Shown here: piece by piece, positions 9,655-53,422 of the stretch
How the letters are laid out: each line of letters begins with the position of its first letter
Position numbering within the stretch: position 1 is the first letter of the stretch
Source of the DNA: an uncultured Pseudomonadales bacterium
Lineage (GTDB): Bacteria > Pseudomonadota > Gammaproteobacteria > Pseudomonadales > Azotimanducaceae
Reading direction: 5' to 3'
Assembly (NCBI GenBank): GCA_905182095.1
Contig: CAJJAQ010000025.1
Location: forward strand, 37,363-101,362
Length of the DNA stretch: 64,000 nt
Notes under the pieces: model-generated
Databases searched by the model: none
What the model was told of the DNA's origin: nothing
Seen by the model: the letters and a program-made list of their open reading frames with translations, nothing else
Program-made: the position numbers and the translations under genes

Positions 9655-10464
9655 GTGACTCACAAAAACTCGTGCAAAAGTACGTGCAAAAACTCGCACA
9701 AAAGCACAGTCGAAAGTACGCTCCAAACCACGGAAAAAACCACGGGAAAAACGTCAGCAAAGACCAAGGTTAACATTGAACCTTGCAAAGACGTAATCTC
9801 TAGATGGCAAGAAGATGAGAGGCCTCGTGAGCGGCTTTTACGCCATGGCCCAGAAAACCTCTCAACGGCGGAACTTTTGGCGCTGTGCTTAGTTTCTGGG
9901 AGTAAAGGGGAAGATGCGGTGCGGATGTCGCGTCGGCTGTTAGAGGAGTTTGGCGGGGTCGGTACATTGCTTGGTGCGCCGATTAGCGCTTTGACCAAGT
10001 TTCGTGGAGTTGGCCTGGCAAAGGCTGCCCAGATCAAAGCAATACATGAGCTTATGGCCCGGGATGTTGAGGTTGATTTAGCCAAAGGCCAGCGCTTTAA
10101 CGACCAACAGTCTGTGAGTCGCTATCTCCGTAAGCGTATTGGTCATTCGCCGCGAGAAGTATTCGCCTGCCTGTACTTAAATTCCAAGCACGAGTTACTC
10201 GCCTTTGAGATCATGTTTAATGGTTCTATTGACCGCGCTCATGTGCACCCTCGTGAAGTATTGCGCCGCGGTATTGAGCTTAATGCTGCGGCAATTATAT
10301 TGGCCCACAATCATCCTTCTGGGGTTGCAGAGCCAAGTCAGGCCGACATTTTTTTGACCAAAGAACTGACCAATTTACTTAAACAAGTAGATATCCGTGT
10401 ACTCGATCATTTCGTTGTTTGTGCGAGAAATACGGTTTCTTTGGCCGCTAGAGGCCTGATCTAG
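9655..10464 (+). CDS. radC: RadC-family (JAMM-like) protein with an unusual repeat-containing N-terminal extension. The start is uncertain.
   Basis: ...[25 protein letters not shown]... and the JAMM-type motif ILAHNHPSG. There is no ATG, GTG or TTG in frame between the 12-bp repeat block and the conserved domain. The possible starts are GTG 9655, TTG 9610 and ATG 9577, and none has a good RBS. Confidence 0.8.
9659..9766 (+). repeat. nine tandem degenerate 12-bp repeats (CGNNCAAAANNN)
   Basis: Units in register: ctcacaaaaact / cgtgcaaaagta / cgtgcaaaaact / cgcacaaaagca / cagtcgaaagta / cgctccaaacca / cggaaaaaacca / cgggaaaaacgt / cagcaaagacca. Confidence 0.85.
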
Positions 10465-10532
10465 CCTTTTTTGTTGCTCTAATTCCCCCACTTTGGTATA
10501 AACGCGCCTCAAATTTTCTAGGGATCCCGACT

Positions 10533-10769
10533 ATGTCCAAGGTATGTCAGGTCACAGGCAAAAGACCAATGGCTGGCAACAATGTCAGTCACGCAATGAA
10601 TAAGACGAGAAGGCGCTTCTTGCCTAATCTGCATTACCATCGTTTTTGGGTGGAATCAGAAAAGCGCTACGTCAAACTGCGAGTATCGTCTAATGGTATG
10701 CGTATTATCGACAAGAAAGGTATTGATATCGTTCTTAAAGACGTGCGCGCTGCAGGTCATAAGGTATAA
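10533..10769 (+). CDS. rpmB: 50S ribosomal protein L28
   Basis: [34 protein letters not shown]... is the conserved L28 sequence. Confidence 0.97.
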
Positions 10770-10879
10770 CAAGCTCTCCTTGCCAGCCAAGCTAGCAGCT
10801 TAGGTGGGTTAAAGAGTATAGTTGCTTGGCTTAGGTTGGCTGTTAATCGACCAAGCCATCAATAAAACGGATTAAAACT

Positions 10880-11035
10880 ATGCGTGATAAAATCAAACTC
10901 GTTTCAAGTGCCGGTACCGGACACTACTACACGACTGATAAAAACAAGAAGAACACACCAGACAAGATGGAAATTAAAAAATTCGATCCTGTTGTGCGCA
11001 AGCATGTGCTCTACAAGGAAGCAAAGATTAAGTAA
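10880..11035 (+). CDS. rpmG: 50S ribosomal protein L33
   Basis: It is not in the ORF track because it is under 60 aa. My translation is [51 protein letters not shown] (51 aa), a classic L33, immediately downstream of rpmB. Confidence 0.94.
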
Positions 11036-11038
11036 GGA

Positions 11039-11863
11039 ATGCCCGAACTCCCCGAAGTCGAAACGACTCGGCGGGGCATAGAGCCCTTCCTCCTTGATCA
11101 ATCGATCCTTGAGATCGAAGTCCGGCAGCCTCGCCTGAGGTGGCCGGTAGACTTGCCGCCCAACCTTGCTGGCAGCAAGGTTGTAGATGTTTCCCGACGC
11201 GGAAAATATATTCTGATTACCACACAAGTAGGCTCTTTGCTTATACACCTTGGTATGTCAGGTAGCCTCAGAGTGGTTAGTCCTCAAACCCCGCCTAAGT
11301 TGCATGATCATATTGATATCAAGCTGACTGGTGAGCATTGGCTGCGTTTTAACGATCCCCGTCGATTTGGCAGTTTTCATTTTCAGCCAGGTAATGCTCA
11401 CGAGCACTGGTTGCTTAAAGATCTCGGCGTTGAACCTTTGGAAAACGAGTTTTCTGGCGACTATTTGTTTAATAGTTCAAGGCGACGAAAGGTTGCGGTG
11501 AAGAATCATATTATGGACGGTAAAGTCGTCGTCGGTGTGGGCAACATTTACGCCGCTGAATCGCTATTTATGGCCAAAATCAGGCCTGCAACGTCTGCTC
11601 AGAGAGTGAGTCGGCTGGCCTATGAAAATTTGGCTCAAGCCATTCGCCAGATTTTGGCTAGCGCCATCAAGGTCGGTGGGACAACCCTACGAGACTTTGT
11701 CGGTTCCGATGGTCAGCCTGGCTATTTTAGCCAAAGCCTCAATGTCTATGGTCGCGAGGGCCAACCCTGCAGAGAGTGCGCCAGCACGCTTAAGGGGCAG
11801 GTATTAGGCCAGAGGAGTACTGTGTATTGCCCCAACTGCCAAAAATTCAGTGGGTGGCGTTAG
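11039..11863 (+). CDS. mutM: formamidopyrimidine-DNA glycosylase
   Basis: Catalytic N-terminus MPELPEVET and C-terminal zinc finger CRECAS...CPNCQ. Confidence 0.95.
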   Translation: MPELPEVETTRRGIEPFLLDQSILEIEVRQPRLRWPVDLPPNLAGSKVVDVSRRGKYILITTQVGSLLIHLGMSGSLRVVSPQTPPKLHDHIDIKLTGEHWLRFNDPRRFGSFHFQPGNAHEHWLLKDLGVEPLENEFSGDYLFNSSRRRKVAVKNHIMDGKVVVGVGNIYAAESLFMAKIRPATSAQRVSRLAYENLAQAIRQILASAIKVGGTTLRDFVGSDGQPGYFSQSLNVYGREGQPCRECASTLKGQVLGQRSTVYCPNCQKFSGWR

Positions 11864-11954
11864 AAGCCGCTACAAGGCGTCTATTGAGTCGGGGCGTGGG
11901 GTTCTACTAGCGAGTTTTTGTCAGTGCCGCGCTCATGGCGTTACCTCATGGCCA

Positions 11955-12452
11955 TTATTTTGCGCTCTTTGCGTTCTTTTGTGCCAATTCAGTAATGACT
12001 TCAGGGTGAACAAACTGCGATATGTCACCGCCCAAAGCTGAAATTTCTCTGACCAATGTTGAGGAGATAAAAGAGCAATCTTTTGATGTGGGTAAGAACA
12101 CGTACTCAAGCTGAGGGTCTAGAGATCTGTTCATCTCTGCCATCTGGAATTCGTAGTCGAAATCAGTGACTGTGCGCAGCCCGCGCAATACGAACCGTGT
12201 TTCTTTGGACCTAACATAGTCGACTAAGAGTGAATTAAAGCCTTCAACTGAAACTCGGTCGCCATATTGCTCGAGGACTTTTTCGCACAGAGCAATTCTG
12301 TCTGCCAAATCTACTTTCGGGTCTTTATTGATAGATGTGCCGATGGCCAAGACGACGTGGTCAAATAGGGTTAATGCCCTTTCTACAAGATCAGTATGCC
12401 CGTTAGTGATTGGGTTGAATGATCCTGGGTAAACCACAGTTCTCTTTGACAT
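11955..12452 (-). CDS. coaD: phosphopantetheine adenylyltransferase
   Basis: VVYPGSFNPITNGHTDLVERA nucleotidyltransferase motif, and a family-typical length of 165 aa. Confidence 0.96.
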   Translation of the reverse strand: MSKRTVVYPGSFNPITNGHTDLVERALTLFDHVVLAIGTSINKDPKVDLADRIALCEKVLEQYGDRVSVEGFNSLLVDYVRSKETRFVLRGLRTVTDFDYEFQMAEMNRSLDPQLEYVFLPTSKDCSFISSTLVREISALGGDISQFVHPEVITELAQKNAKSAK

Positions 12453-12553
12453 AGTCTTCTTCTCTGCGTCTTTAGACGTCTAATTTCATCGTTAGGGCGA
12501 TATTAGCCTTGGGTTTTTGCGACTGCAAGTTGATTGAAGTGAATGAAATGTGC

Positions 12554-13138
12554 TCACTGTTGCAGAGCTTTATGCGCGACCAATGCGCTAAAGGTGTTGC
12601 CGCTAGATGTTTTTCGGTTAATTTCTAGATCGTTGGAATGGCTGATTTCTTCTATCAATTGTTGCTTATTGGATTCTAGATAAATATATTTTGTTGCCAA
12701 CCTATGTTGCACAATGATCCGTACGCACGCAGCTAACAAGTCTGGTTGGGTGTACGGTGGGTCGAGAAATATAATATCAAATGGAGTATTTAGGCCGTTT
12801 AGATAATTTAGCGCATTAGCTTTAATGGCCTGACACGAGGGCTCACCAAGATCAGCCACATTTTTTTCTAGGCTAGAGAAAATTGTCGGTTCACTTTCTA
12901 CCAAAATTACTTCGCTGGCACCTTGAGAAAGCGCTTCTATGCCAAGCGCGCCAGATCCAGCACATAAATCAAGGCACTTGGTGCCTTCGATTTCTGGTCT
13001 CAACCAGTTGAATAGAGTTTCTCTGGTTCGACCCAGGGTGGGTCTTAAATCGTCAATTTCCGGAAATGCAATTTTGCGACCTCGCCACTTGCCGCCAATA
13101 AGGCGCACTGTTTGGGTTTTAGTACTTTGCTTTTTCAT
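12554..13138 (-). CDS. rsmD: 16S rRNA (guanine966-N2)-methyltransferase
   Basis: RLIGGKWRGRK N-terminus, SAM-binding LDLCAGSGALGIEALSQGA, and the IIFLDPPY motif. Confidence 0.9.
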   Translation of the reverse strand: MKKQSTKTQTVRLIGGKWRGRKIAFPEIDDLRPTLGRTRETLFNWLRPEIEGTKCLDLCAGSGALGIEALSQGASEVILVESEPTIFSSLEKNVADLGEPSCQAIKANALNYLNGLNTPFDIIFLDPPYTQPDLLAACVRIIVQHRLATKYIYLESNKQQLIEEISHSNDLEINRKTSSGNTFSALVAHKALQQ

Positions 13139-13342
13139 AGGAGATATAACGTGCAGGGCATAGTTTTGATGCCAAGTATTATAGAATGTTCCTGAGCAAT
13201 GTGCTTTAACCTTAGCGCTACTTGTTAGTGTTTTTCCTTGTGCGCTTAGGTTTGGGATTTTTGCGTTATAGTAGCTCAGTTCCTTGGAGCCATTGGCTTC
13301 AAAGGTTCGACCAAAAAGAATTTCACCAAAGATGATATCGAT

Positions 13343-14311
13343 ATGTCAGACAGCAAAGCGCCAAGCCTTTTTTCTAAACTACGCTCAGGCTTGGCAAAAA
13401 CCCGGGCACAACTCGCAGACGGTGTGGGCAATCTTTTGCTCGGCGAAAAAGAAATCAGTGACACGGTTTTAGAAGATTTAGAAACTGCCCTGATCACCAC
13501 CGATGTTGGCGTGGATACCACTCAAGACATCATCGAAAATTTGACCCAGCGTGCTCAACGCCGTGAACTTGCCAACACTCGGGCTTTGCATGAAGCCTTG
13601 CACAAATTGCTGACAGAGCGCCTGTTACCTATTTCACAAACCTTTGAACTGCCGGAGAAAAAGGCCGGCATGCCGCGAGTCATTTTCTTTGTTGGCGTAA
13701 ATGGGGTGGGCAAAACCACCACTATCGGCAAGTTGGCGAAGCGCTTCAAAGATGAAGGCAAGAGCGTTTTACTTGCTGCCGGAGATACTTTTCGTGCCGC
13801 AGCGGTGGAGCAGCTTCAAGCCTGGGGGGAGCGCAACGATATTCCGGTGATCGCTCAGCCTCAAGGCTCGGACAGCGCTTCCGTAGTTTTTGATGCTGTG
13901 CAGTCCGCTCAAGCTAGAGATGTTGACGTTCTCCTTGTTGACACGGCAGGTCGGTTGCAGGCTAAAACTCAGTTAATGGATGAGTTAGAAAAAATTCAGC
14001 GAGTGGTCAAAAGGCTGGATCCAGGCGCCCCCCATGAAGTGATTTTAGTGCTCGATGGTGGTGTTGGTCAAAATGCACTTAGCCAAGTGAAACTATTTAA
14101 TGAAGCAGTAAAACTTACCGGGTTAGTGGTGACAAAACTCGATGGAACCGCCAAAGCTGGGGTGATTTTTGCCGTCGCGAGTGGTGCCGGCGGTGTGCCC
14201 AAAGTGCCGTTATATTTTATTGGCGTAGGCGAAGGCGTGGATGATTTACGTCCTTTTGATGCAGATAATTTTGTCCAGGCACTGCTCGCCTCAGATTTAG
14301 ACGCCGGTTAG
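13343..14311 (+). CDS. ftsY: signal recognition particle receptor FtsY (short form, without a long acidic A-domain)
   Basis: SRP-GTPase NG domain with GVNGVGKTTTIGKLA, DTAGR and TKLDGTAKAG. Confidence 0.95.
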   Translation: MSDSKAPSLFSKLRSGLAKTRAQLADGVGNLLLGEKEISDTVLEDLETALITTDVGVDTTQDIIENLTQRAQRRELANTRALHEALHKLLTERLLPISQTFELPEKKAGMPRVIFFVGVNGVGKTTTIGKLAKRFKDEGKSVLLAAGDTFRAAAVEQLQAWGERNDIPVIAQPQGSDSASVVFDAVQSAQARDVDVLLVDTAGRLQAKTQLMDELEKIQRVVKRLDPGAPHEVILVLDGGVGQNALSQVKLFNEAVKLTGLVVTKLDGTAKAGVIFAVASGAGGVPKVPLYFIGVGEGVDDLRPFDADNFVQALLASDLDAG

Positions 14312-14317
14312 CCCGCA

Positions 14318-15016
14318 ATGGCCAGCATAGTCTTAGAAAACGTCACCAAGCAGTTTTCCAGCGGCTACAAAGCGCTGGTGGATGTCACGGTGGATTTTGA
14401 TTCTGGATCAATGACCTTCTTGACCGGTCATTCCGGGGCCGGCAAAAGTACGTTTTTGCGGTTACTTATTGGTGCAGACCAGCCTACCCGTGGGCGGGTT
14501 TTGGTAGGTGGCGTGAATATTAGCCAGTTAAGCACAAAGCGCATGCCCTGGTATCGACGCAATGTAGGGGTGGTGTTTCAAGACCACCACTTACTGGCAG
14601 ACCGTTCGGTGTTTGAAAACGTTGCGCTGCCCTTACGGATTGGACACTTCCCAGCAAAAGAAATTGCATCTCGAGTGCGCGGTGCATTAAGCGCAGTGGA
14701 TTTGTTGGACAAAGAGAAACTCCTGCCAGGATTTTTGTCCACTGGCGAGCAACAGCGGGTAGGCATTGCTCGAGCCGTTGTAAATAGACCAAAAATTTTG
14801 CTGGCTGATGAACCGACGGGTAATTTAGATCCGGGTTTGTCAAAGACGATAATGGATCTGTTTAGCCAATTCAGGGAGATTGGCACCACTGTAGTTATCG
14901 CCACCCACGATATAGAGTTGGTCAAGAGTATGGGTCAACCTACACTGAACTTGATTGCAGGGCGTCTTGAAGATGCAGGCGCCGGGCAAACAAAAGTCAC
15001 CGAGTTCAACAGATGA
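14318..15016 (+). CDS. ftsE: cell division ATP-binding protein FtsE
   Basis: Walker A GHSGAGKST, ABC signature LSTGEQQRV and Walker B ILLADEPTGNLD. It lies between ftsY and ftsX. Confidence 0.96.
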   Translation: MASIVLENVTKQFSSGYKALVDVTVDFDSGSMTFLTGHSGAGKSTFLRLLIGADQPTRGRVLVGGVNISQLSTKRMPWYRRNVGVVFQDHHLLADRSVFENVALPLRIGHFPAKEIASRVRGALSAVDLLDKEKLLPGFLSTGEQQRVGIARAVVNRPKILLADEPTGNLDPGLSKTIMDLFSQFREIGTTVVIATHDIELVKSMGQPTLNLIAGRLEDAGAGQTKVTEFNR

Positions 15017-15031
15017 AAAACCGGGTGCGCT

Positions 15032-16009
15032 GTGGATAAGAAGAAAGTTGAAAGTCTCGATCCTTGGGCGAAACCATCAGGCGGCTTGCTTAATTGGCTC
15101 AAAGACCATGGGCGAACTTTTAATGACACAACCCTGTTTGTCAGTCAGCGTTTAGCCAGCAGTCTGTTTGTATGGTTTCTAGTCGGTATTGCATTAGCCC
15201 TGCCAGGAATACTTTGGCTTGCTCAGGTTAATCTTCAAGCGGTTGGTGAGGGCTGGCAGGGTCGCGCTGGGTTGACGGTATATTTCGAGACCGGGGTTAA
15301 CGCCGCTGAGATAAATACGCTGTTAGGCGATTTAGAGAAAATCCCTTTGGTAGAAAAAACTTCTTTGACCACGGCGGACCAAGCACTCAAAGATTTTGTC
15401 TCCCAAACATCGGATGCCCGCGAGCTGCGCAACATAGTCGCCAACCTAGATGAAAACCCGCTGCCTGCATCCATCCAAATTACCAGTAGTGAGGGCGCTG
15501 ACTTTATTCAGCTTGAGGGTTTGCAGAGGCAGTTACGGGCCAAGTCGCAAGTTAACGATGTGGTTATTGAAAAGACTTGGTTGGAGCGCCTGCGCGATAT
15601 TACGACCTTGTTAAACCGACTGGGCTGGATATTCGGTGTACTTTTTGGTCTGGGCGCCATTTTTGTTACCTCTGCATCGGTGCGTTTAGCCATAGAGTCG
15701 CGCTTGCAAGAGATGCTTGTTTTGGCGCTTGTGGGCGCGACAAGAGGGCAGATGCGACGGCCCTTTATCTATTTTGGAGCCTGTTACGGCCTCGGTGGTG
15801 GCATTATGGCGGTGATGTTCTTAGCTCTTATTCTTAACGCAATTGAAGGCCCCCTGCAGGCACTGCTAGGTAGTTATCAAGTGCCTATAGTGGTCAGGGG
15901 TTTTGATGGCAAATTCCTGCTTAGTATGTTGATTGTTGGAATTTCTCTCGGCGTAATTGGTGCCTGGGTGGCGGTAAGACAGCGTTTACATAGCGCTCAG
16001 TTTGTCTAG
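15032..16009 (+). CDS. ftsX: cell division permease-like protein FtsX
   Basis: One N-terminal TM segment, a periplasmic domain and three C-terminal TM segments. It follows ftsE. The start is GTG at 15032. Confidence 0.9.
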   Translation: MDKKKVESLDPWAKPSGGLLNWLKDHGRTFNDTTLFVSQRLASSLFVWFLVGIALALPGILWLAQVNLQAVGEGWQGRAGLTVYFETGVNAAEINTLLGDLEKIPLVEKTSLTTADQALKDFVSQTSDARELRNIVANLDENPLPASIQITSSEGADFIQLEGLQRQLRAKSQVNDVVIEKTWLERLRDITTLLNRLGWIFGVLFGLGAIFVTSASVRLAIESRLQEMLVLALVGATRGQMRRPFIYFGACYGLGGGIMAVMFLALILNAIEGPLQALLGSYQVPIVVRGFDGKFLLSMLIVGISLGVIGAWVAVRQRLHSAQFV

Positions 16010-16095
16010 CTGAAAACACTCACCGAAAGCAGATTGATGACGCTAGCACCGGGGTTTTGCGCAGCTTTTGTCCCAATTCTGGGTCCAAATCTTTG

Positions 16096-16122
16096 TTAGC
16101 ACTCTTCAGGTTAGAGTGCTAA
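16096..16122 (+). promoter_or_regulatory. CIRCE element (HrcA operator) overlapping a putative rpoH promoter
   Basis: TTAGCACTC-TTCAGGTTA-GAGTGCTAA matches the CIRCE consensus TTAGCACTC-N9-GAGTGCTAA with no mismatches. It ends 33 nt upstream of the rpoH ATG. A candidate promoter lies inside or abutting the element: -35 TTAGCA (16096-16101), an 18-nt spacer, and -10 TAATAT (16120-16125). Confidence 0.75.
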
Positions 16123-16154
16123 TATCAAAAAATCGTGTTACCGGAAGTATCACC

Positions 16155-17006
16155 ATGACAACAAATATTATGGCAATGCCAAGCATCGCTCCAGGTCGCG
16201 ACCTCGATGCCTATCTACGCACAATTAGTCAATTCCCTATCCTCAAGCCGGAAGCAGAAAAAATCCTTGCTGAGCGTTTTTATGCGGATGCGGATTTAGA
16301 CGCCGCCCGAGAATTAGTCATGTGTCACCTGCGTTTTGTGGTGCACCTTGCTCGATCATATAAAGGCTATGGACTGTCCCAAGCAGATTTAATCCAAGAA
16401 GGCAATGTTGGGTTGATGAAGGCGGTGAAGAGGTTCGATCCCAACGTAGGTGTACGTTTGATTTCTTTTGCTGTGCATTGGATAAAGGCGGAAATTCACG
16501 AGTACATTTTACGCAACTGGCGCATTGTTAAAGTTGCAACAACCAAATCTCAACGCAAGTTATTTTTCAACCTGCGTGGTGCTAAGCGCAGTAGTGCATG
16601 GTTGACCTTGGCAGAGACACAGGCGATCGCCGAAGACCTTGGTGTATCTGCGGCTGAAGTGACACGTATGGAAGGTCGGTTGAGTGCAAGTGATATGGCA
16701 TTTGACGGTTACGGTACCGACGAAGAGTCCGCCACCGCACCAATGCACTTCTTGGCTTCTGCCGCGCCGGATCCTGCGGACCTTGTTGCTGATGAGCATA
16801 TGCAGCAGGACGCGAGCTTTCGCCTCAGCGCAGGACTAGCAGACCTTGATGAGCGTAGTAGAGATATATTGCAGCAGCGTTGGTTGAGTGATGATAAATC
16901 TACCCTGCACGAGTTGGCCGCTGAGTATGGTGTATCTGCTGAACGCATTCGCCAGTTAGAAAAGAACGCCATGAAGAAACTCAAACTTGCGATTACTGCT
17001 GATTAG
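16155..17006 (+). CDS. rpoH: RNA polymerase sigma-32 factor RpoH
   Basis: RpoH box SQRKLFFNLRG, region 2 DLIQEGNVGLMKAVKRFDP and region 4 LHELAAEYGVSAERIRQLEKNAMKKL. I trimmed the start to the ATG at 16155 (MTTNIMAMPS...), which follows a GGAAG RBS. The track start at 16068 would run through the CIRCE element. Confidence 0.93.
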   Translation: MTTNIMAMPSIAPGRDLDAYLRTISQFPILKPEAEKILAERFYADADLDAARELVMCHLRFVVHLARSYKGYGLSQADLIQEGNVGLMKAVKRFDPNVGVRLISFAVHWIKAEIHEYILRNWRIVKVATTKSQRKLFFNLRGAKRSSAWLTLAETQAIAEDLGVSAAEVTRMEGRLSASDMAFDGYGTDEESATAPMHFLASAAPDPADLVADEHMQQDASFRLSAGLADLDERSRDILQQRWLSDDKSTLHELAAEYGVSAERIRQLEKNAMKKLKLAITAD

Positions 17007-17009
17007 CGG

Positions 17010-17384
17010 ATGGCCAAATTATTCATCCTTGTGGGAGGCTCACTGGGCCTCCTTGGCGTTGTGTTTGGTGCCTTTGGCGCTCACGCTCTAAAAGAACGCC
17101 TCAGCGCTGCAGGTTTGTCTAGTTGGGAAACCGCAGTTTCCTATCAGATGTACCACGCCTTAGTTTTGCTTTTTGTGGGGTTATGGTTGTTACTCGATGG
17201 CCCTGCCTCGCTGCGTTATGCAGGGGTGTTGTTCATTGTTGGTATTGTGCTTTTCAGTGGCAGTATTTACGCACTGGTATTAGGCGCCGGTTCATGGCTT
17301 GGGCCAATAACGCCCCTTGGTGGCGTAACTTTGATAGCCGCCTGGGCCACCCTCATATACTCTTCTCTAGCAATAAATAATTAA
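17010..17384 (+). CDS. DUF423 (YgdD-like) small inner-membrane protein
   Basis: Four predicted TM helices and GAFGAHAL near the N-terminus, which is typical of DUF423. Confidence 0.75.
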   Translation: MAKLFILVGGSLGLLGVVFGAFGAHALKERLSAAGLSSWETAVSYQMYHALVLLFVGLWLLLDGPASLRYAGVLFIVGIVLFSGSIYALVLGAGSWLGPITPLGGVTLIAAWATLIYSSLAINN

Positions 17385-19298: not shown

Positions 19299-19890
19299 TT
19301 AGGTTAAGACTTGCCGACAGCTGACTAACCAAGTGTGCACTGGCTTGACCTCGATGACTAAGTTCATTCTTGATTGTCGCAGGTAGCTCAGCCGCGCTAC
19401 GGTTTTCGCTGGCAACGAAAAATAGTGGGTCATAACCGAACCCTCCGTCTCCTTTAGGTTCTAATAGGATCTCGCCCCACCACTGTCCGTAGGCAATTAT
19501 CGGTGTCGGGTCTTGGGCCTGATTTAAAAAAACCATACAGCAAAAGAAATAGGCTGCCCGTGACTCATGGCCCGCTAGCTGACTAATTAGTTCTCTGTTA
19601 TTTTCTTCGTCCGTTGCCTCACTATGGGCAAAGCGCGATGAATAAATACCAGGCCGACCACTCAGCGCAGGTACAACCAAACCGCTGTCATCGGCTATAG
19701 CGGGCATGGCTGCAGCCAAACTCACGGCCCTAGCCTTAATCAGGGCATTTTCTACGAATGTTGCGCCGTCCTCTACAGGACTTGGAATGGTTGTATCAGT
19801 TTGGTTCTCTAGCTCTAAGCCTAAAGGCGCCAGCAAACGCTGCATTTCGATAATCTTGCCGTTATTGCGCGTTCCCAGCATCACTTTCAT
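19291..19890 (-). CDS. rdgB: dITP/XTP pyrophosphatase (Ham1/RdgB family)
   Basis: MKVMLGTRNNGKIIE... and GDGGFGYDPLF motifs. The track start at 19902 is TTG. The ATG at 19890 forms a TAATG overlap with the upstream stop. Confidence 0.9.
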   Translation of the reverse strand: MKVMLGTRNNGKIIEMQRLLAPLGLELENQTDTTIPSPVEDGATFVENALIKARAVSLAAAMPAIADDSGLVVPALSGRPGIYSSRFAHSEATDEENNRELISQLAGHESRAAYFFCCMVFLNQAQDPTPIIAYGQWWGEILLEPKGDGGFGYDPLFFVASENRSAAELPATIKNELSHRGQASAHLVSQLSASLNLNA

Positions 19891-20327
19891 TATTCTGCCC
19901 AATAGAGCTTTTGGTTGAATTTAAGCAAGGTAGACTTGCCGTCAGGTGCGCTCGCCTCAATTTTAATTCTATGCACTTCTTGATCTGCGAAGCGTATCTC
20001 TGCGAGATAGTAAATGGCGTCACCCTCCTTCACTTGTTTGAAGTCTAGATTTTGTAATTGGCCTAACAAATTCTGACTGTCGCCTGTAATGACGGCGTTT
20101 ACCGCCTTTTTCTCGCGATTGAGAACCGATACATTAATCAGTGCACGATCTTTGCCGCGAGAAATATCGTATTCAGCTGCAATACTTGGCTTCAGCATAG
20201 TGGTGGGTATGACTATATAGTGGAGTTCATATTGGCCGAAACGCTGCATTTGCTCGGCAGCGCTCAGCGGACTGAAGATGATTGCCGTTACGCAGAGCAA
20301 AATTCTTAACGGGATCTTTATGAACAT
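19890..20327 (-). CDS. DUF4426-like secreted protein
   Basis: Signal peptide [26 protein letters not shown]. The ATG at 20327 follows an AGGAAAG RBS. A small exported protein sits in the same position downstream of metW in Pseudomonas. Confidence 0.7.
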   Translation of the reverse strand: MFIKIPLRILLCVTAIIFSPLSAAEQMQRFGQYELHYIVIPTTMLKPSIAAEYDISRGKDRALINVSVLNREKKAVNAVITGDSQNLLGQLQNLDFKQVKEGDAIYYLAEIRFADQEVHRIKIEASAPDGKSTLLKFNQKLYWAE

Positions 20328-20920
20328 GCGGACTTTCCTAGTCGATAAAATGCATAGGTGCCGAAAAAATTGGGCGCCCAATTAATAAAAGCCTTTTCTT
20401 GATGGTTTGCGTCAACTACACGCCGTTGAATAATATTGATAGATTCAGTTTTACACAGTTGCTCAAAGTCGGCGAATGTACAAAGGTGAATGTTTGGTGT
20501 GTCAAACCAGCTATGTGGTAATTGTTCAGACACAGGCATTACACCCTTCAGTGCTAGCTGTGCACGACAGCGCCAATGGGCAAAATTTGGAAAAGTGACA
20601 ATACATTCTTCGCCGACGCGCAGCATATCTCTAACAAGTTGTCTTGGTTCTTTGACCGCCTGTAGTGCGTCGGTCATAACAACCATGTCAAAACTGTCTT
20701 TGGCAAAGTTGTCTAAACCTTGATCCAAATCTTGCTCAATGACATTGACACCCTTGCTCACGCAGGTTCGTATATTTTCTGCGTCGCGGTCTAAGCCGTA
20801 GCCATTTACCCGTTTGTCGCGCTGTAGATGATTAAGTAACTCACCCTCCCCACAACCCAAATCTAGTACCCGGGCGCCAGGGTTTATGAGGCCAGCGATC
20901 AGTTCTAAATCACCCCTCAT
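20318..20920 (-). CDS. metW: methionine biosynthesis protein MetW
   Basis: Methyltransferase-like [12 protein letters not shown] and a MetW-like sequence. The start forms an ATGA overlap with the metX stop. Confidence 0.92.
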
Positions 20921-22101
20921 GAAAGGTCCCCTTGAGTTGTTTGCGAGGATCTAGATATGTCTTCGAGTTCGGCGTAGGAGCGCTGCAAGAATGCACTAAG
21001 AATTTTTGTGTACCTATTAATGGGCAATAAAAACGAATCATGTCCGTGTTCAGATTCGATAATAGCTGAAGCGACATTTTTTCTTGCCCGAATTAGCGCG
21101 TCGACAATTTCTTGAGATCGCTCAGGTGAAAAGCGCCAATCTGTAGAAAACGAAAGCACCAAAAACTTTGTTGTGGTTTGTTCAAGTGCGCGAGTTAGGT
21201 CGCCGTCGAATTCTCGCGCCGGATCAAAATAGTCCAAAGCGCGGGTCATCAAGAGGTATGTATTGGCATCAAAGTACTGAGTGAAAGCACGCCCCTGATA
21301 GTGAAGATAACTCTCTACTTGGAATTCAACATCAGCGCCTTGTGCGAAATTGCCAGATTTCACGTCGCGACCAAATTTTGTTTTCATACCATCTTCGGAG
21401 AGATAGGTAACGTGCCCAACCATCCTTGCCAGCATCAACCCTTTCTCGGGGTTTTTATCAAACTGCTGGTAATTGCCCGAGCAATAGTCTTCGTCGGTTG
21501 TGATGGCTTGCCTGGCGATTTCGTTGAAGGCAATATTCTGAGCCGATAATTTAGCCGCGGATGCAATTAAAACTGCCGCATAAACTCGCTCGGGGAAGTC
21601 GATACTCCATTGCATTGCTTGCATGCCACCTAGGCTGCCGCCAACTACGGCAACAAACTTTTTGATTCCAAGATGATCTGCAAGGTGCGCTTGGCTCGCT
21701 ACCCAATCTTTAACCACAACATTGGGGAAGCTTGGACCAAATATTTCGCCCGTATTAGGGTCTATAGAGTTTGGCCCGGTGCTGCCATGACAACCACCTA
21801 GGTTGTTGAGACTGAGGACAAAAAATTGATCCGTATCTATGCACTTTCCTGGGCCTATACAAGCATCCCACCAACCTGGCTTTGCATCATCTAATGCGTG
21901 AAAGCCGGCCGCATGATGATGCCCAGATAGGGCGTGACAGATAAGTATGGCGTTAGATTTATCAGCGTTGAGCGTGCCGTAAGTTTCGAATACTAATTCG
22001 TACTCGTGCAGTTGTTCACCGTTTTGCAGCCAGAACTCCGAGTTATGCTGATAGCGCCGTGGCTCAACTACGCCTAACGAGTTTGCTTTTGATTGCGTCA
22101 T
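20917..22101 (-). CDS. metX: homoserine O-acyltransferase MetX (acetyl vs succinyl specificity not determinable by eye)
   Basis: Alpha/beta-hydrolase nucleophile elbow [10 protein letters not shown] and a MetX-like N-terminus. It is paired with metW. Confidence 0.95.
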
Positions 22102-22637
22102 TAGATAAAGGCGTATGCGTTAGGTAGCGACCTTTGAGCGATAGACAGCAGCAAAATGACCACCATAGGTGAAAAATCTAGTGGGCCCATGGATGGTAAA
22201 ATATTCCTAATCGGGCGTATCAAAGGGTCCAACAATTGATCTAACAATGATAATCCAGGATGACTATTGCCTTGAGAGACAAAGCTCGCGATAACAACTA
22301 TGAGCATTGACCACCAGTAGAAATCTACGAGCACAGAAAGGGTGCGCACAATACCAAAGACAGCGTACTGGCTCACGGAGAGCTTCCCCATGCTGATGAT
22401 GACTACAAACACTAGACCCATGAGCAAAGCGAGAAGCGCAGACGCTAGGTCGAATTTGCCGATTGCTGGTAGGAATTTTCTCAAAGGCGATGCTAAAGGT
22501 TCGCTGCCTTTGATTACTGCTTGGCTAATAGGGTTGTAGAAGTCGGCGCCACTGGCTTGGAGCAAAAACCTAATTAAGAACAGTAGCGTGGCTAAACGCA
22601 TAATAAGGTCGGCAACTAATATAAGTGTCTGAGTCAT
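22101..22637 (-). CDS. yggT: YggT family membrane protein
   Basis: A polytopic membrane protein between proC and metX, which is the usual yggS-proC-yggT arrangement. Confidence 0.8.
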
Positions 22638-42299: not shown

Positions 42300-42480
42300 A
42301 AGTGCTCCCGGAAATGCCGCTGTTGGTTTGCCCTGAACCGTCGAAGCTCAAGGCGGAGAATCAAGCAAAATCTAAGGCGCCCCATAAGGTTGGGTATGCA
42401 CACCGACTCTGCGGAGAATCTCCTGACGTTTATTTAACGGCTCAAGGACTTGACCACTCGCAAACATCCCAGGAACAGTG
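42300..42480 (-). ncRNA. ssrS: 6S RNA
   Basis: The minus strand reads CUGUUCCUGGGAUGUUUGCGAGUGGUCAAGUCCUUGAGCCGUUAAAUAAAC...GGUUCAGGGCAAACCAACAGCGGCAUUUCCGGGAGC. This parallels E. coli 6S (CUGAGAUGUUCGCAAGCGGGCCAGUCCCCUGAGCCGAUAUUUCAUA...GGUUCAAGGGUUACAGCCUGCGGCGGCAUCUCGGAGA). The 5' and 3' ends pair to form a closing stem. The zapA-ssrS-ygfA synteny is conserved. The ends are approximate (+/-5 nt). Confidence 0.82.
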
Positions 42481-51316: not shown

Positions 51317-53422
51317 TCAGTCATTTAATGCTTTTTTGAACAACTCTAAATCGGTTATTGGTTTAGCGCATTCATCTCCATCATGAATAAAGGCACTGAC
51401 CCTGTTTTTGGTTTCCGAGCTCACCAGCCCCGGTAAGTAGCTGGGAATAGTCCTGCTGTCATCGTAGGGAATTGCATAGCAGCTGCGCCAAGGCGCGTAG
51501 TTGCTGCCTATAACATCTTGCCATTCACGCATTTTCTCACGAGGTCCGCGCAGCACGATCTGTACGATTGGTTCGTTGGCATCTTCAAGCGCCATGATCA
51601 GACCGTAATGACTAGATGGATATTGCTCCATGATGGGTCTTGCCCAACGTAAGGTGTTGGTTGCCACATCTAAGTACTCGGTTTTGCCAAGTAAGTGGCC
51701 GAGGCGATTGAGTGCCAGTGCTAATGTTGCATTACCCGGTGGCACAGATTCGTCCAAGGTCGGCTTTGGTCGAAACAGTAGGTTTTCTTGGTCTTCGTGG
51801 CTGAAGAAAAAACCGCCGTGGTCGGTATCGTAAAAGCCGCTAATGACAGCATCGGCCAAGGCAACGGCAAAAGCTGCGTCTTGTTCTCTCCAGCGGCATT
51901 GTAATAAATCCAACAGACCCATAATGACGTTGGCATAGTCGTCTAAAAACCCATGGCTGTGTTCGCTATGGTTGCGCCAATTTGCGGTTAAAGCTTTGCC
52001 ATTCCAACATTGGCTATAAAGGAAGTCCGCCAGTTGCTCTGCGCTGCTGATCCATTCAGGACGTTCCATTACTGTACCTGCTTCCACCAGCCCACTGATC
52101 AATAAGCCATTCCAGCCAGTAAGGATAGTTTCGTCTATTCTTGGCACTGTGCGTTGTTGTCGCTGCATCAAGAGTTTCTCTTTGCCGCTGGTCAATAACT
52201 GATTCGCTGCTGCAGTTTGCATGGATAGCCGTTCCACCACTGAGCGATAAGAGTCTCGGCGGTGCAGGCTCCAATGGTTATTCAGATTCGCCGGCTTATC
52301 TAATTCGTATAATGTTTCAATCAGCAGGTATTCATCTTCTTCAAGGAGTTTCTTAATTTCATCGCGACGCCACAGGTAGTATTTACCAACACCGTTGGAT
52401 TGCGTCAGAAGCGCGTCTTGGGATGCATAAAATCCGCCGTTTGCATGACGCATTTCACCCATCAGCCAAGCGATGGTATCGCTGATGGCATCCTGGAACA
52501 GCGGATCAGGCCCCAGTCGCAACGCCTCAGCAAAAATCGATAGCAGCTGGGCGTTGTCATATAGAACCTTTTCAAAATAGGGTGTTCGCCACTGGCGATC
52601 TGTTGTGTAACGAAAAAAACCGCCGCCTAAATGATCGTAAATGCCACCTCTGGCAATTCTTGTGAGTGTTGTCATAACCACTTCTAGGGCATTTTTGTCA
52701 TTGTCTTTATGCCTTCTTGAAATTGCCCAATGTCGGAGCAAACCCTGCAACCTGACGGTCATGGCAAATTTGGGGCCTTGGCCAAATCCCCCCTCGCTCT
52801 CGTCAAACTGATTAGCTACCTGATCCTTGGCTAAAAAAATCAGCTCAGCGTCGGGCATATTTGGATCAAGGAGCGGTGGGTACATTTGCTTCACGGCTTG
52901 AGCCATCTTTGCTGATTGTGTGCGCAAATCTTCAGCTTGATCGGTGAACGCTTGGCTTAAACGCATTAACAAGTCAGCAAATCCTGGCATCGTACTTGTG
53001 GCATTTTTGGCAAAGTAAGCGCCACCAAAAAACGGCGTCAGATTTTGTGGGTCTATGACTACTGTCAAAGGCCAACCACCGTTGTTTTTGTTCAAAAGTT
53101 GCAGTGCGCTTTGGTAGACTTTGTCTAAGTCCGGTCTCTCTTCGCGGTCGACCTTTATATTTATAAAATGCTCATTCATGATTTGCGCGGTGCTAGGGTC
53201 AGAAAATGACTCTCGGGACATTAACTCGCACCATGGATTAGTGGCGTAACCAATGGACAGCAAAATCGGCTTGTTCTGTTCTTTCGCCTTGGTCAGGGCA
53301 TCCGCACTCCATGGGTGCCAATGGACTGGTTGAGTTTGGTGATCTAATAAGTAGAGGCTAGTTTCGCCACTGAGATGGTTAGGCATAGATTGTGAGTTCG
53401 ACTGAAAAGAGAATTTTCGCAT
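51317..53422 (-). CDS. thioredoxin-domain-containing protein (YyaL/DUF255 family) with a C-terminal six-hairpin glycosidase-like / N-acylglucosamine-2-epimerase-like domain
   Basis: N-terminal region ETSLYLLDHQTQPVHWHPWS...KPILLSIGYATNPWCELM, followed by a ~500-aa alpha-alpha toroid-like region. The alternative start ATG at 53386 (MPNHLSGE...) is equally plausible. Confidence 0.82.
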   Translation of the reverse strand: MRKFSFQSNSQSMPNHLSGETSLYLLDHQTQPVHWHPWSADALTKAKEQNKPILLSIGYATNPWCELMSRESFSDPSTAQIMNEHFINIKVDREERPDLDKVYQSALQLLNKNNGGWPLTVVIDPQNLTPFFGGAYFAKNATSTMPGFADLLMRLSQAFTDQAEDLRTQSAKMAQAVKQMYPPLLDPNMPDAELIFLAKDQVANQFDESEGGFGQGPKFAMTVRLQGLLRHWAISRRHKDNDKNALEVVMTTLTRIARGGIYDHLGGGFFRYTTDRQWRTPYFEKVLYDNAQLLSIFAEALRLGPDPLFQDAISDTIAWLMGEMRHANGGFYASQDALLTQSNGVGKYYLWRRDEIKKLLEEDEYLLIETLYELDKPANLNNHWSLHRRDSYRSVVERLSMQTAAANQLLTSGKEKLLMQRQQRTVPRIDETILTGWNGLLISGLVEAGTVMERPEWISSAEQLADFLYSQCWNGKALTANWRNHSEHSHGFLDDYANVIMGLLDLLQCRWREQDAAFAVALADAVISGFYDTDHGGFFFSHEDQENLLFRPKPTLDESVPPGNATLALALNRLGHLLGKTEYLDVATNTLRWARPIMEQYPSSHYGLIMALEDANEPIVQIVLRGPREKMREWQDVIGSNYAPWRSCYAIPYDDSRTIPSYLPGLVSSETKNRVSAFIHDGDECAKPITDLELFKKALND

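Follow-up and report, generated by a model that had tools for sequence, protein, structure and literature searches.

[quoted passage not shown] We consider it likely that this 27-bp palindrome is a functional CIRCE operator which overlaps the rpoH promoter and places rpoH under the control of HrcA and GroEL. This model is anchored in the perfect operator, its position, the purifying selection on its arms and a conserved -10-like extension, each of which is read directly from the loci compared.

The sequence at 16096-16122 is TTAGCACTCTTCAGGTTAGAGTGCTAA, and it matches the CIRCE consensus (TTAGCACTC-N9-GAGTGCTAA) at 18 of 18 arm positions, which bears out the perfect CIRCE reported in a first-pass annotation of this DNA. 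The left arm TTAGCACTC occupies 16096-16104, the 9-bp spacer TTCAGGTTA 16105-16113 and the right arm GAGTGCTAA 16114-16122; no strand is assigned to the site as a whole, which we take as a putative HrcA operator. With up to 3 mismatches tolerated it is the sole CIRCE-like match in the window, and shuffled sequences give an expectation of 0.04 matches even at that tolerance, so that the earlier judgement that a chance match was very unlikely holds. The CIRCE lies in the 145-nt ftsX-rpoH intergenic region, where its two ends stand 59 and 32 nt before the rpoH ATG, in agreement with the annotated distance of less than 60 nt from the start of a heat-shock regulator. It is thus found in the promoter/5' region of a heat-shock gene, the location by which an HrcA operator is recognised.

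The downstream gene is a bona fide rpoH: its 283-aa product (16155-17006, + strand) scores 388.6 bits against NCBIfam TIGR02392, above the cutoff of 323.1, and the RpoH box QRKLFFNLR is seen in the translation, which together identify it as an RpoH equivalog. The start of the gene is the ATG at 16155, not 16156 (first ATG of the ORF). A protein identical to the window RpoH is the sigma-32 of a Candidatus Azotimanducaceae MAG and is found in marine assemblies, including Tara, and an RpoH labelled 'OM182 bacterium' is 82% identical to it. MAGs with the window RpoH are represented by the NCBI proteins MEZ7818080.1 and MFQ3363977.1, and an OM182 relative by RZO72421.1; in the NCBI taxonomy the family Candidatus Azotimanducaceae belongs to the Pseudomonadales. 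Upstream of rpoH lie ftsY (13343-14311) and ftsE (14318-15016), both with NCBIfam matches, and ftsX (15032-16009, + strand; NCBIfam FtsX_Gneg), which ends the ftsYEX group and forms the upstream boundary of the regulatory region. Downstream, a gene for a DUF423/YgdD-like small membrane protein (17010-17384, + strand) starts 3 nt past the rpoH stop; no terminator-like site was found between the two genes, and the order rpoH-DUF423-trmB is conserved among rpoH loci both with and without CIRCE. The DUF423 gene is probably co-transcribed with rpoH, and would then ride as a passenger on an HrcA-controlled transcript. The genes around rpoH are housekeeping genes (rpoH-DUF423-trmB, hemW, rdgB, metW, metX), in an order that we take to be Pseudomonas-like. 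Elsewhere in the window, a 6S RNA (SsrS) gene is found at 42301-42478 on the - strand (Rfam RF00013, 89.7 bits against a gathering score of 46.4), and NCBIfam gave no match for three ORFs on the same strand, at 51317-53422, 22101-22637 and 19890-20381 (701, 178 and 163 aa), the shortest of which corresponds to a DUF4426 gene listed under Pfam.

Conservation of the palindrome was evaluated against related rpoH loci. In the closest relative, L124, RpoH is 96% identical to that of the window and the fourfold-degenerate sites of rpoH are 53% different, which indicates that neutral positions are near saturation. Between the same two loci the CIRCE arms are identical at 18 of 18 positions and the spacer at 6 of 9, against only about half of the positions in most of the intergenic region. 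Since the arms are identical and the spacer is not, despite near-saturated neutral sites in rpoH, these alignments indicate that the CIRCE site is under purifying selection. The arms are likewise kept, with at most one mismatch, in the OM182-clade loci L204-206 and in three further relatives, L208 (a 6.1-Mb genome), L125 and L126, the RpoH proteins of which are 66-82% identical to that of the window; throughout the OM182-clade and sister loci (L204-L210, L125, L126) the arms are retained and the flanks are unalignable. Conservation in related rpoH upstream regions, on which the first-pass annotation had made its proposal depend, was therefore found, with invariant arms and a free spacer.

On a broader scale, a metagenome scan with RpoH showed a CIRCE (at most 2 mismatches) in 31 of 80 rpoH loci, ending about 28-80 nt before the ATG, and it was present at all metagenomic loci with upstream sequence and an RpoH identity of at least about 63%. 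Where ftsX lies directly upstream of rpoH, a CIRCE is present in 36 loci and absent from 39. Perfect CIRCEs were also sampled from GTDB species genomes: of 120, about 44 stand before groES/groEL, 31 before hrcA and 8 before rpoH, these last being mostly from Betaproteobacteria (Roseateles, Ramlibacter, Deefgea) together with one gammaproteobacterial MAG. For a comparison between classes, 46 non-redundant rpoH-linked CIRCEs (33 perfect, 10 with one mismatch and 3 with two) were set against 78 CIRCEs that stand before other heat-shock genes (groES, groEL, hrcA, dnaK).

This comparison bears on the promoter that appears to be embedded in the operator. A putative sigma-70 -35 element, TTAGCA (4 of 6 positions), is read from the sequence at 16096-16101 (+ strand), inside the left arm as the first-pass annotation had it; this hexamer is not separately assessable, because the left arm is already fixed by the CIRCE. 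The right arm was also said to run into a -10, and the hexamer TAATAT is present at 16120-16125. It forms part of a putative extended -10, TGcTAATAT (TGCTAATAT, 16117-16125, + strand), in which the six bases TGC and TAA close the right arm and TAT lies beyond it; the TG is at 16117-16118, and the spacer between -35 and -10 is 18 nt long, the optimum being 17. A generic promoter scan made no call at this site, where 8 of 12 hexamer positions match and 9 are required, and found nothing else resembling a promoter between ftsX and rpoH in the window. The case for the promoter therefore rests on the TG extension and on conservation across loci.

The third base after the CIRCE (+3) is T in 44 of 46 rpoH-linked sites and in 11 of 78 other sites (Fisher p about 1e-20), that is, in 96% of the rpoH class as against 12% of groES sites and 10% of hrcA sites. 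Position +2 is A in 76% of the rpoH-linked CIRCEs, and the resulting hexamers are TAATAT (13), TAAAAT (11), TAACAT (5), TAAACT (5) and similar forms. The mirror position, -3, is unconserved at these sites (A in 15%), which shows that the +3 feature is directional and no extension of the palindrome. These data strongly back the view that an operator of the rpoH class ends in bases that also serve as a putative extended -10; in the groES and hrcA classes, by contrast, the -10 is not fused to the right arm in this way. Within the clade of the window a constant 31-33 nt separate the CIRCE from the ATG, in keeping with a transcription start near 16131-16133 (+ strand), as predicted from promoter geometry about 6-8 nt past the -10, and a leader of ~23 nt. 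Full-text searches of the literature returned no description of an operator/-10 fusion, nor of a fusion with a sigma-E promoter.

A role as an RNA hairpin has been reported for CIRCE in Bacillus subtilis transcripts. Here the palindrome might be transcribed, either because transcription of ftsX runs on into it or from a promoter further upstream that escaped recognition, and act mainly as a 5'-leader hairpin on mRNA stability or translation. It does fold strongly (-9.3 kcal/mol and z = -5.75 in a DNA model) and an RNA model folds it too; moreover, the terminator-like site at the end of ftsX is only weak, as are the hexamers of the embedded promoter. Nevertheless, we regard such a role as improbable. 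All 16 arm deviations among the 46 rpoH-linked sites are one-sided, the partner base being unchanged, and this argues for sequence-specific recognition of the DNA by a protein and not for maintenance of a stem. The T at +3, conserved, directional and specific to the rpoH class, indicates a -10 instead, and the fixed distance to the ATG in the window clade fits a start just downstream of the CIRCE.

Recognition by HrcA raises the question of where the hrcA gene is. A tblastn analysis of the 64-kb window found no hrcA, groES, groEL or dnaK; a homologue search with the Thiohalomonas HrcA returned Thiohalomonas relatives only, and further HrcA homologue searches and cluster look-ups gave none attributable to Azotimanducaceae or OM182. 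In these searches HrcA was widespread in Gammaproteobacteria, and the accession prefixes of the marine HrcA proteins differed from those of the RpoH-bearing MAGs. One marine HrcA locus, L211, has recN-nadK beside hrcA-grpE-dnaK-dnaJ-dapB; it was considered as the source of the window organism's hrcA and rejected, since a GC content of 36.5% and a tetranucleotide correlation of 0.56 with the window point to a different organism. The gene order in L211-L214 (about 9938-15026) is smpB, bamE, fur, recN, nadK, a CIRCE with 2 mismatches and then hrcA-grpE-dnaK-dnaJ-dapB, in a low-GC marine gammaproteobacterium, and it presumably resembles the Pseudomonas order with nadK and hrcA inserted. The low-GC metagenomic rpoH loci L129, L186 and L190 are without a CIRCE, suggesting that rpoH belongs to the regulon in some HrcA-bearing lineages and not in others.

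It could be argued from these searches that the palindrome is a relic, or the binding site of some other factor, in a lineage that has lost hrcA as Pseudomonas and Escherichia coli have. The Pseudomonas-like gene order around rpoH would be in keeping with this, Pseudomonas being without HrcA to our knowledge. We give this reading very little credence: perfect arms persist across lineages in which neutral sites are saturated, which is not expected of a relic, and we know of no CIRCE-binding factor other than HrcA. From the strong purifying selection on a site whose only known ligand is HrcA, we infer that the window organism has this repressor. As for the palindrome being due to chance, or being the intrinsic terminator of ftsYEX, to which a stem-loop positioned after ftsX might lend itself, the conservation data effectively refute both, since what dozens of rpoH loci conserve is the exact CIRCE sequence and not a mere stem; the low expectation in shuffled sequences stands against the former, and the lack of a T-run after the stem and of any call in a terminator scan against the latter.

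With the palindrome as an HrcA operator, control of rpoH would follow the known HrcA-GroEL mechanism, in which titration of GroEL by unfolded proteins causes HrcA to lose its activity. The left arm would provide the weak -35 TTAGCA, and the extended -10 would be made up of the final six bases of the right arm and the three that follow, so that an HrcA dimer, kept active by GroEL and bound to both arms, would cover both promoter elements and exclude RNA polymerase. Bound HrcA would hold down transcription of rpoH and, probably, of the DUF423 gene behind it. When unfolded proteins titrate GroEL, HrcA would become inactive and be released, and rpoH would be derepressed, probably together with the DUF423 gene; sigma-32 would then rise and induce its regulon, free GroEL would recover and repression would be restored. 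An hrcA gene in the genome, the binding of HrcA, the start of transcription and the physiological response are the parts of this scheme that we infer.

An arrangement of this kind is already known or predicted in other proteobacteria. Permina and Gelfand are said to have predicted, in 2003, CIRCEs at rpoH in beta- and some gammaproteobacteria, and the CIRCE-rpoH case of Geobacter was reportedly studied experimentally by Ueki and Lovley in 2007. For Geobacter sulfurreducens, a CIRCE upstream of rpoH is listed at position -51 (Rodionov et al. 2004, Table 8, PMC545781), in a paper that cites Permina and Gelfand 2003 for beta-, gamma- and epsilon-proteobacteria; in our full-text literature searches it was the only source to state a CIRCE upstream of rpoH. 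The comparisons support the reading of the first-pass annotation, save for its hrcA gene, and it was correct in mentioning earlier computational predictions of CIRCE at rpoH. In view of these predictions the arrangement is less novel than first judged and reveals no new kind of system; what is new here is the uncultured marine lineage.

As in Geobacter, a perfect TTAGCACTC-N9-GAGTGCTAA stands tens of nt before the start of rpoH, with the same apparent wiring of HrcA onto sigma-32. The case differs from Geobacter and the others in its host, an uncultured marine member of OM182 / Candidatus Azotimanducaceae, and in its ftsYEX-rpoH context, and it is known here from sequence, without a located hrcA. 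With respect to the classical HrcA/CIRCE regulon (groESL and hrcA-grpE-dnaK-dnaJ of Bacillus subtilis; proteobacterial groESL), the sequence and geometry of the operator are identical and the GroEL-dependent repressor mechanism is presumed to be the same, but the target is a sigma-factor gene and not a chaperone operon. The gene order ftsYEX-rpoH is shared with Escherichia coli, which has neither HrcA nor CIRCE; many related CIRCE-bearing loci keep an element like that of the E. coli P3 promoter, GGAACTT-N16-TCTAA, whereas the window is without it. In E. coli, rpoH is controlled through multiple promoters, including the sigma-E-dependent P3, through an mRNA thermosensor and through turnover by DnaK/FtsH. 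OM182 / Azotimanducaceae would thus join those proteobacteria where HrcA, a repressor that senses chaperone status, apparently controls whether rpoH is transcribed, in contrast to the textbook enteric control of sigma-32, which acts mainly via translation and proteolysis. Such wiring appears to be common, with about 40% of the sampled environmental rpoH loci carrying the site, and the fusion of operator and promoter is stereotyped.

The P3-like element was looked at across both classes of site. A sigma-E-type -35 (nGAACnn, with at least 5 of 7 matches to GGAACTT) has its end 7-10 nt upstream of the CIRCE, most often at 9 nt, in 29 of 46 rpoH-linked sites as against 0 of 78 other sites; the loci that carry it include L004, L035, L064, L069 (from Deefgea rivuli), L126, L130, L131, L141, L144, L145, L158, L178 and L189. 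In the rpoH class the first three bases of the spacer are enriched for T-A-A, which leaves GGAACTT-N16-TC-TAA, divided at the junction of left arm and spacer, nested in the operator with a spacing that we take to be the geometry of E. coli rpoH P3. A GGAACTT-type motif also occurs in 12 of 44 CIRCE-less rpoH loci, 72-134 nt before the ATG (most at 72-96). A sigma-E-like promoter (GGAACTT-N16-TCnnA) was not found in the window between 16010 and 16154, and for this reason a sigma-70-type promoter alone is proposed there.

These observations allow a more speculative proposal, which we put forward tentatively and hold to be rather doubtful as a whole: in many beta- and gammaproteobacterial lineages rpoH may be a compact three-input node, with a sigma-E and a sigma-70 promoter nested in one HrcA operator, and the clade of the window may have dispensed with the sigma-E input and acquired a conserved leader block, perhaps with a role in translational control. 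In such a node the sigma-E -35 (GGAACTT) would lie 9 nt upstream of the CIRCE and its -10 (TC-TAA) at the left arm/spacer junction, and the sigma-70 extended -10 would be TGcTAAnAT at the right arm. If this were true, the input from envelope stress and the housekeeping input to sigma-32 would both be subject to chaperone status.

The leader block, GTGTTACCGGAAGTATCAC (16135-16153, + strand), is clade-specific and contains the Shine-Dalgarno sequence GGAAG (16143-16147). It is invariant in relatives with an RpoH identity of at least 66% and absent elsewhere, and between the window and L124 the 23 bases up to the ATG are identical (23 of 23), with neutral sites near saturation. The block is conserved without covariation. 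A hairpin that it can form, which includes the Shine-Dalgarno sequence, is weak and melts at ~37-42 C in the model, and with z = 0.82 it is no better than shuffled sequences, which lends no support to an RNA thermometer. An extended thermosensor like that of E. coli found no support either: the first 270 nt of the rpoH mRNA show no excess folding (z = +1.54), and Rfam gave no match.

A further stretch of the intergenic region, GGTTTTGCGCAGCTTTTGTC at 16053-16072, was not seen in relatives more distant than L124. It shares 18 of 20 bases with L124 amid diverged intergenic sequence, and could be a second regulatory site.
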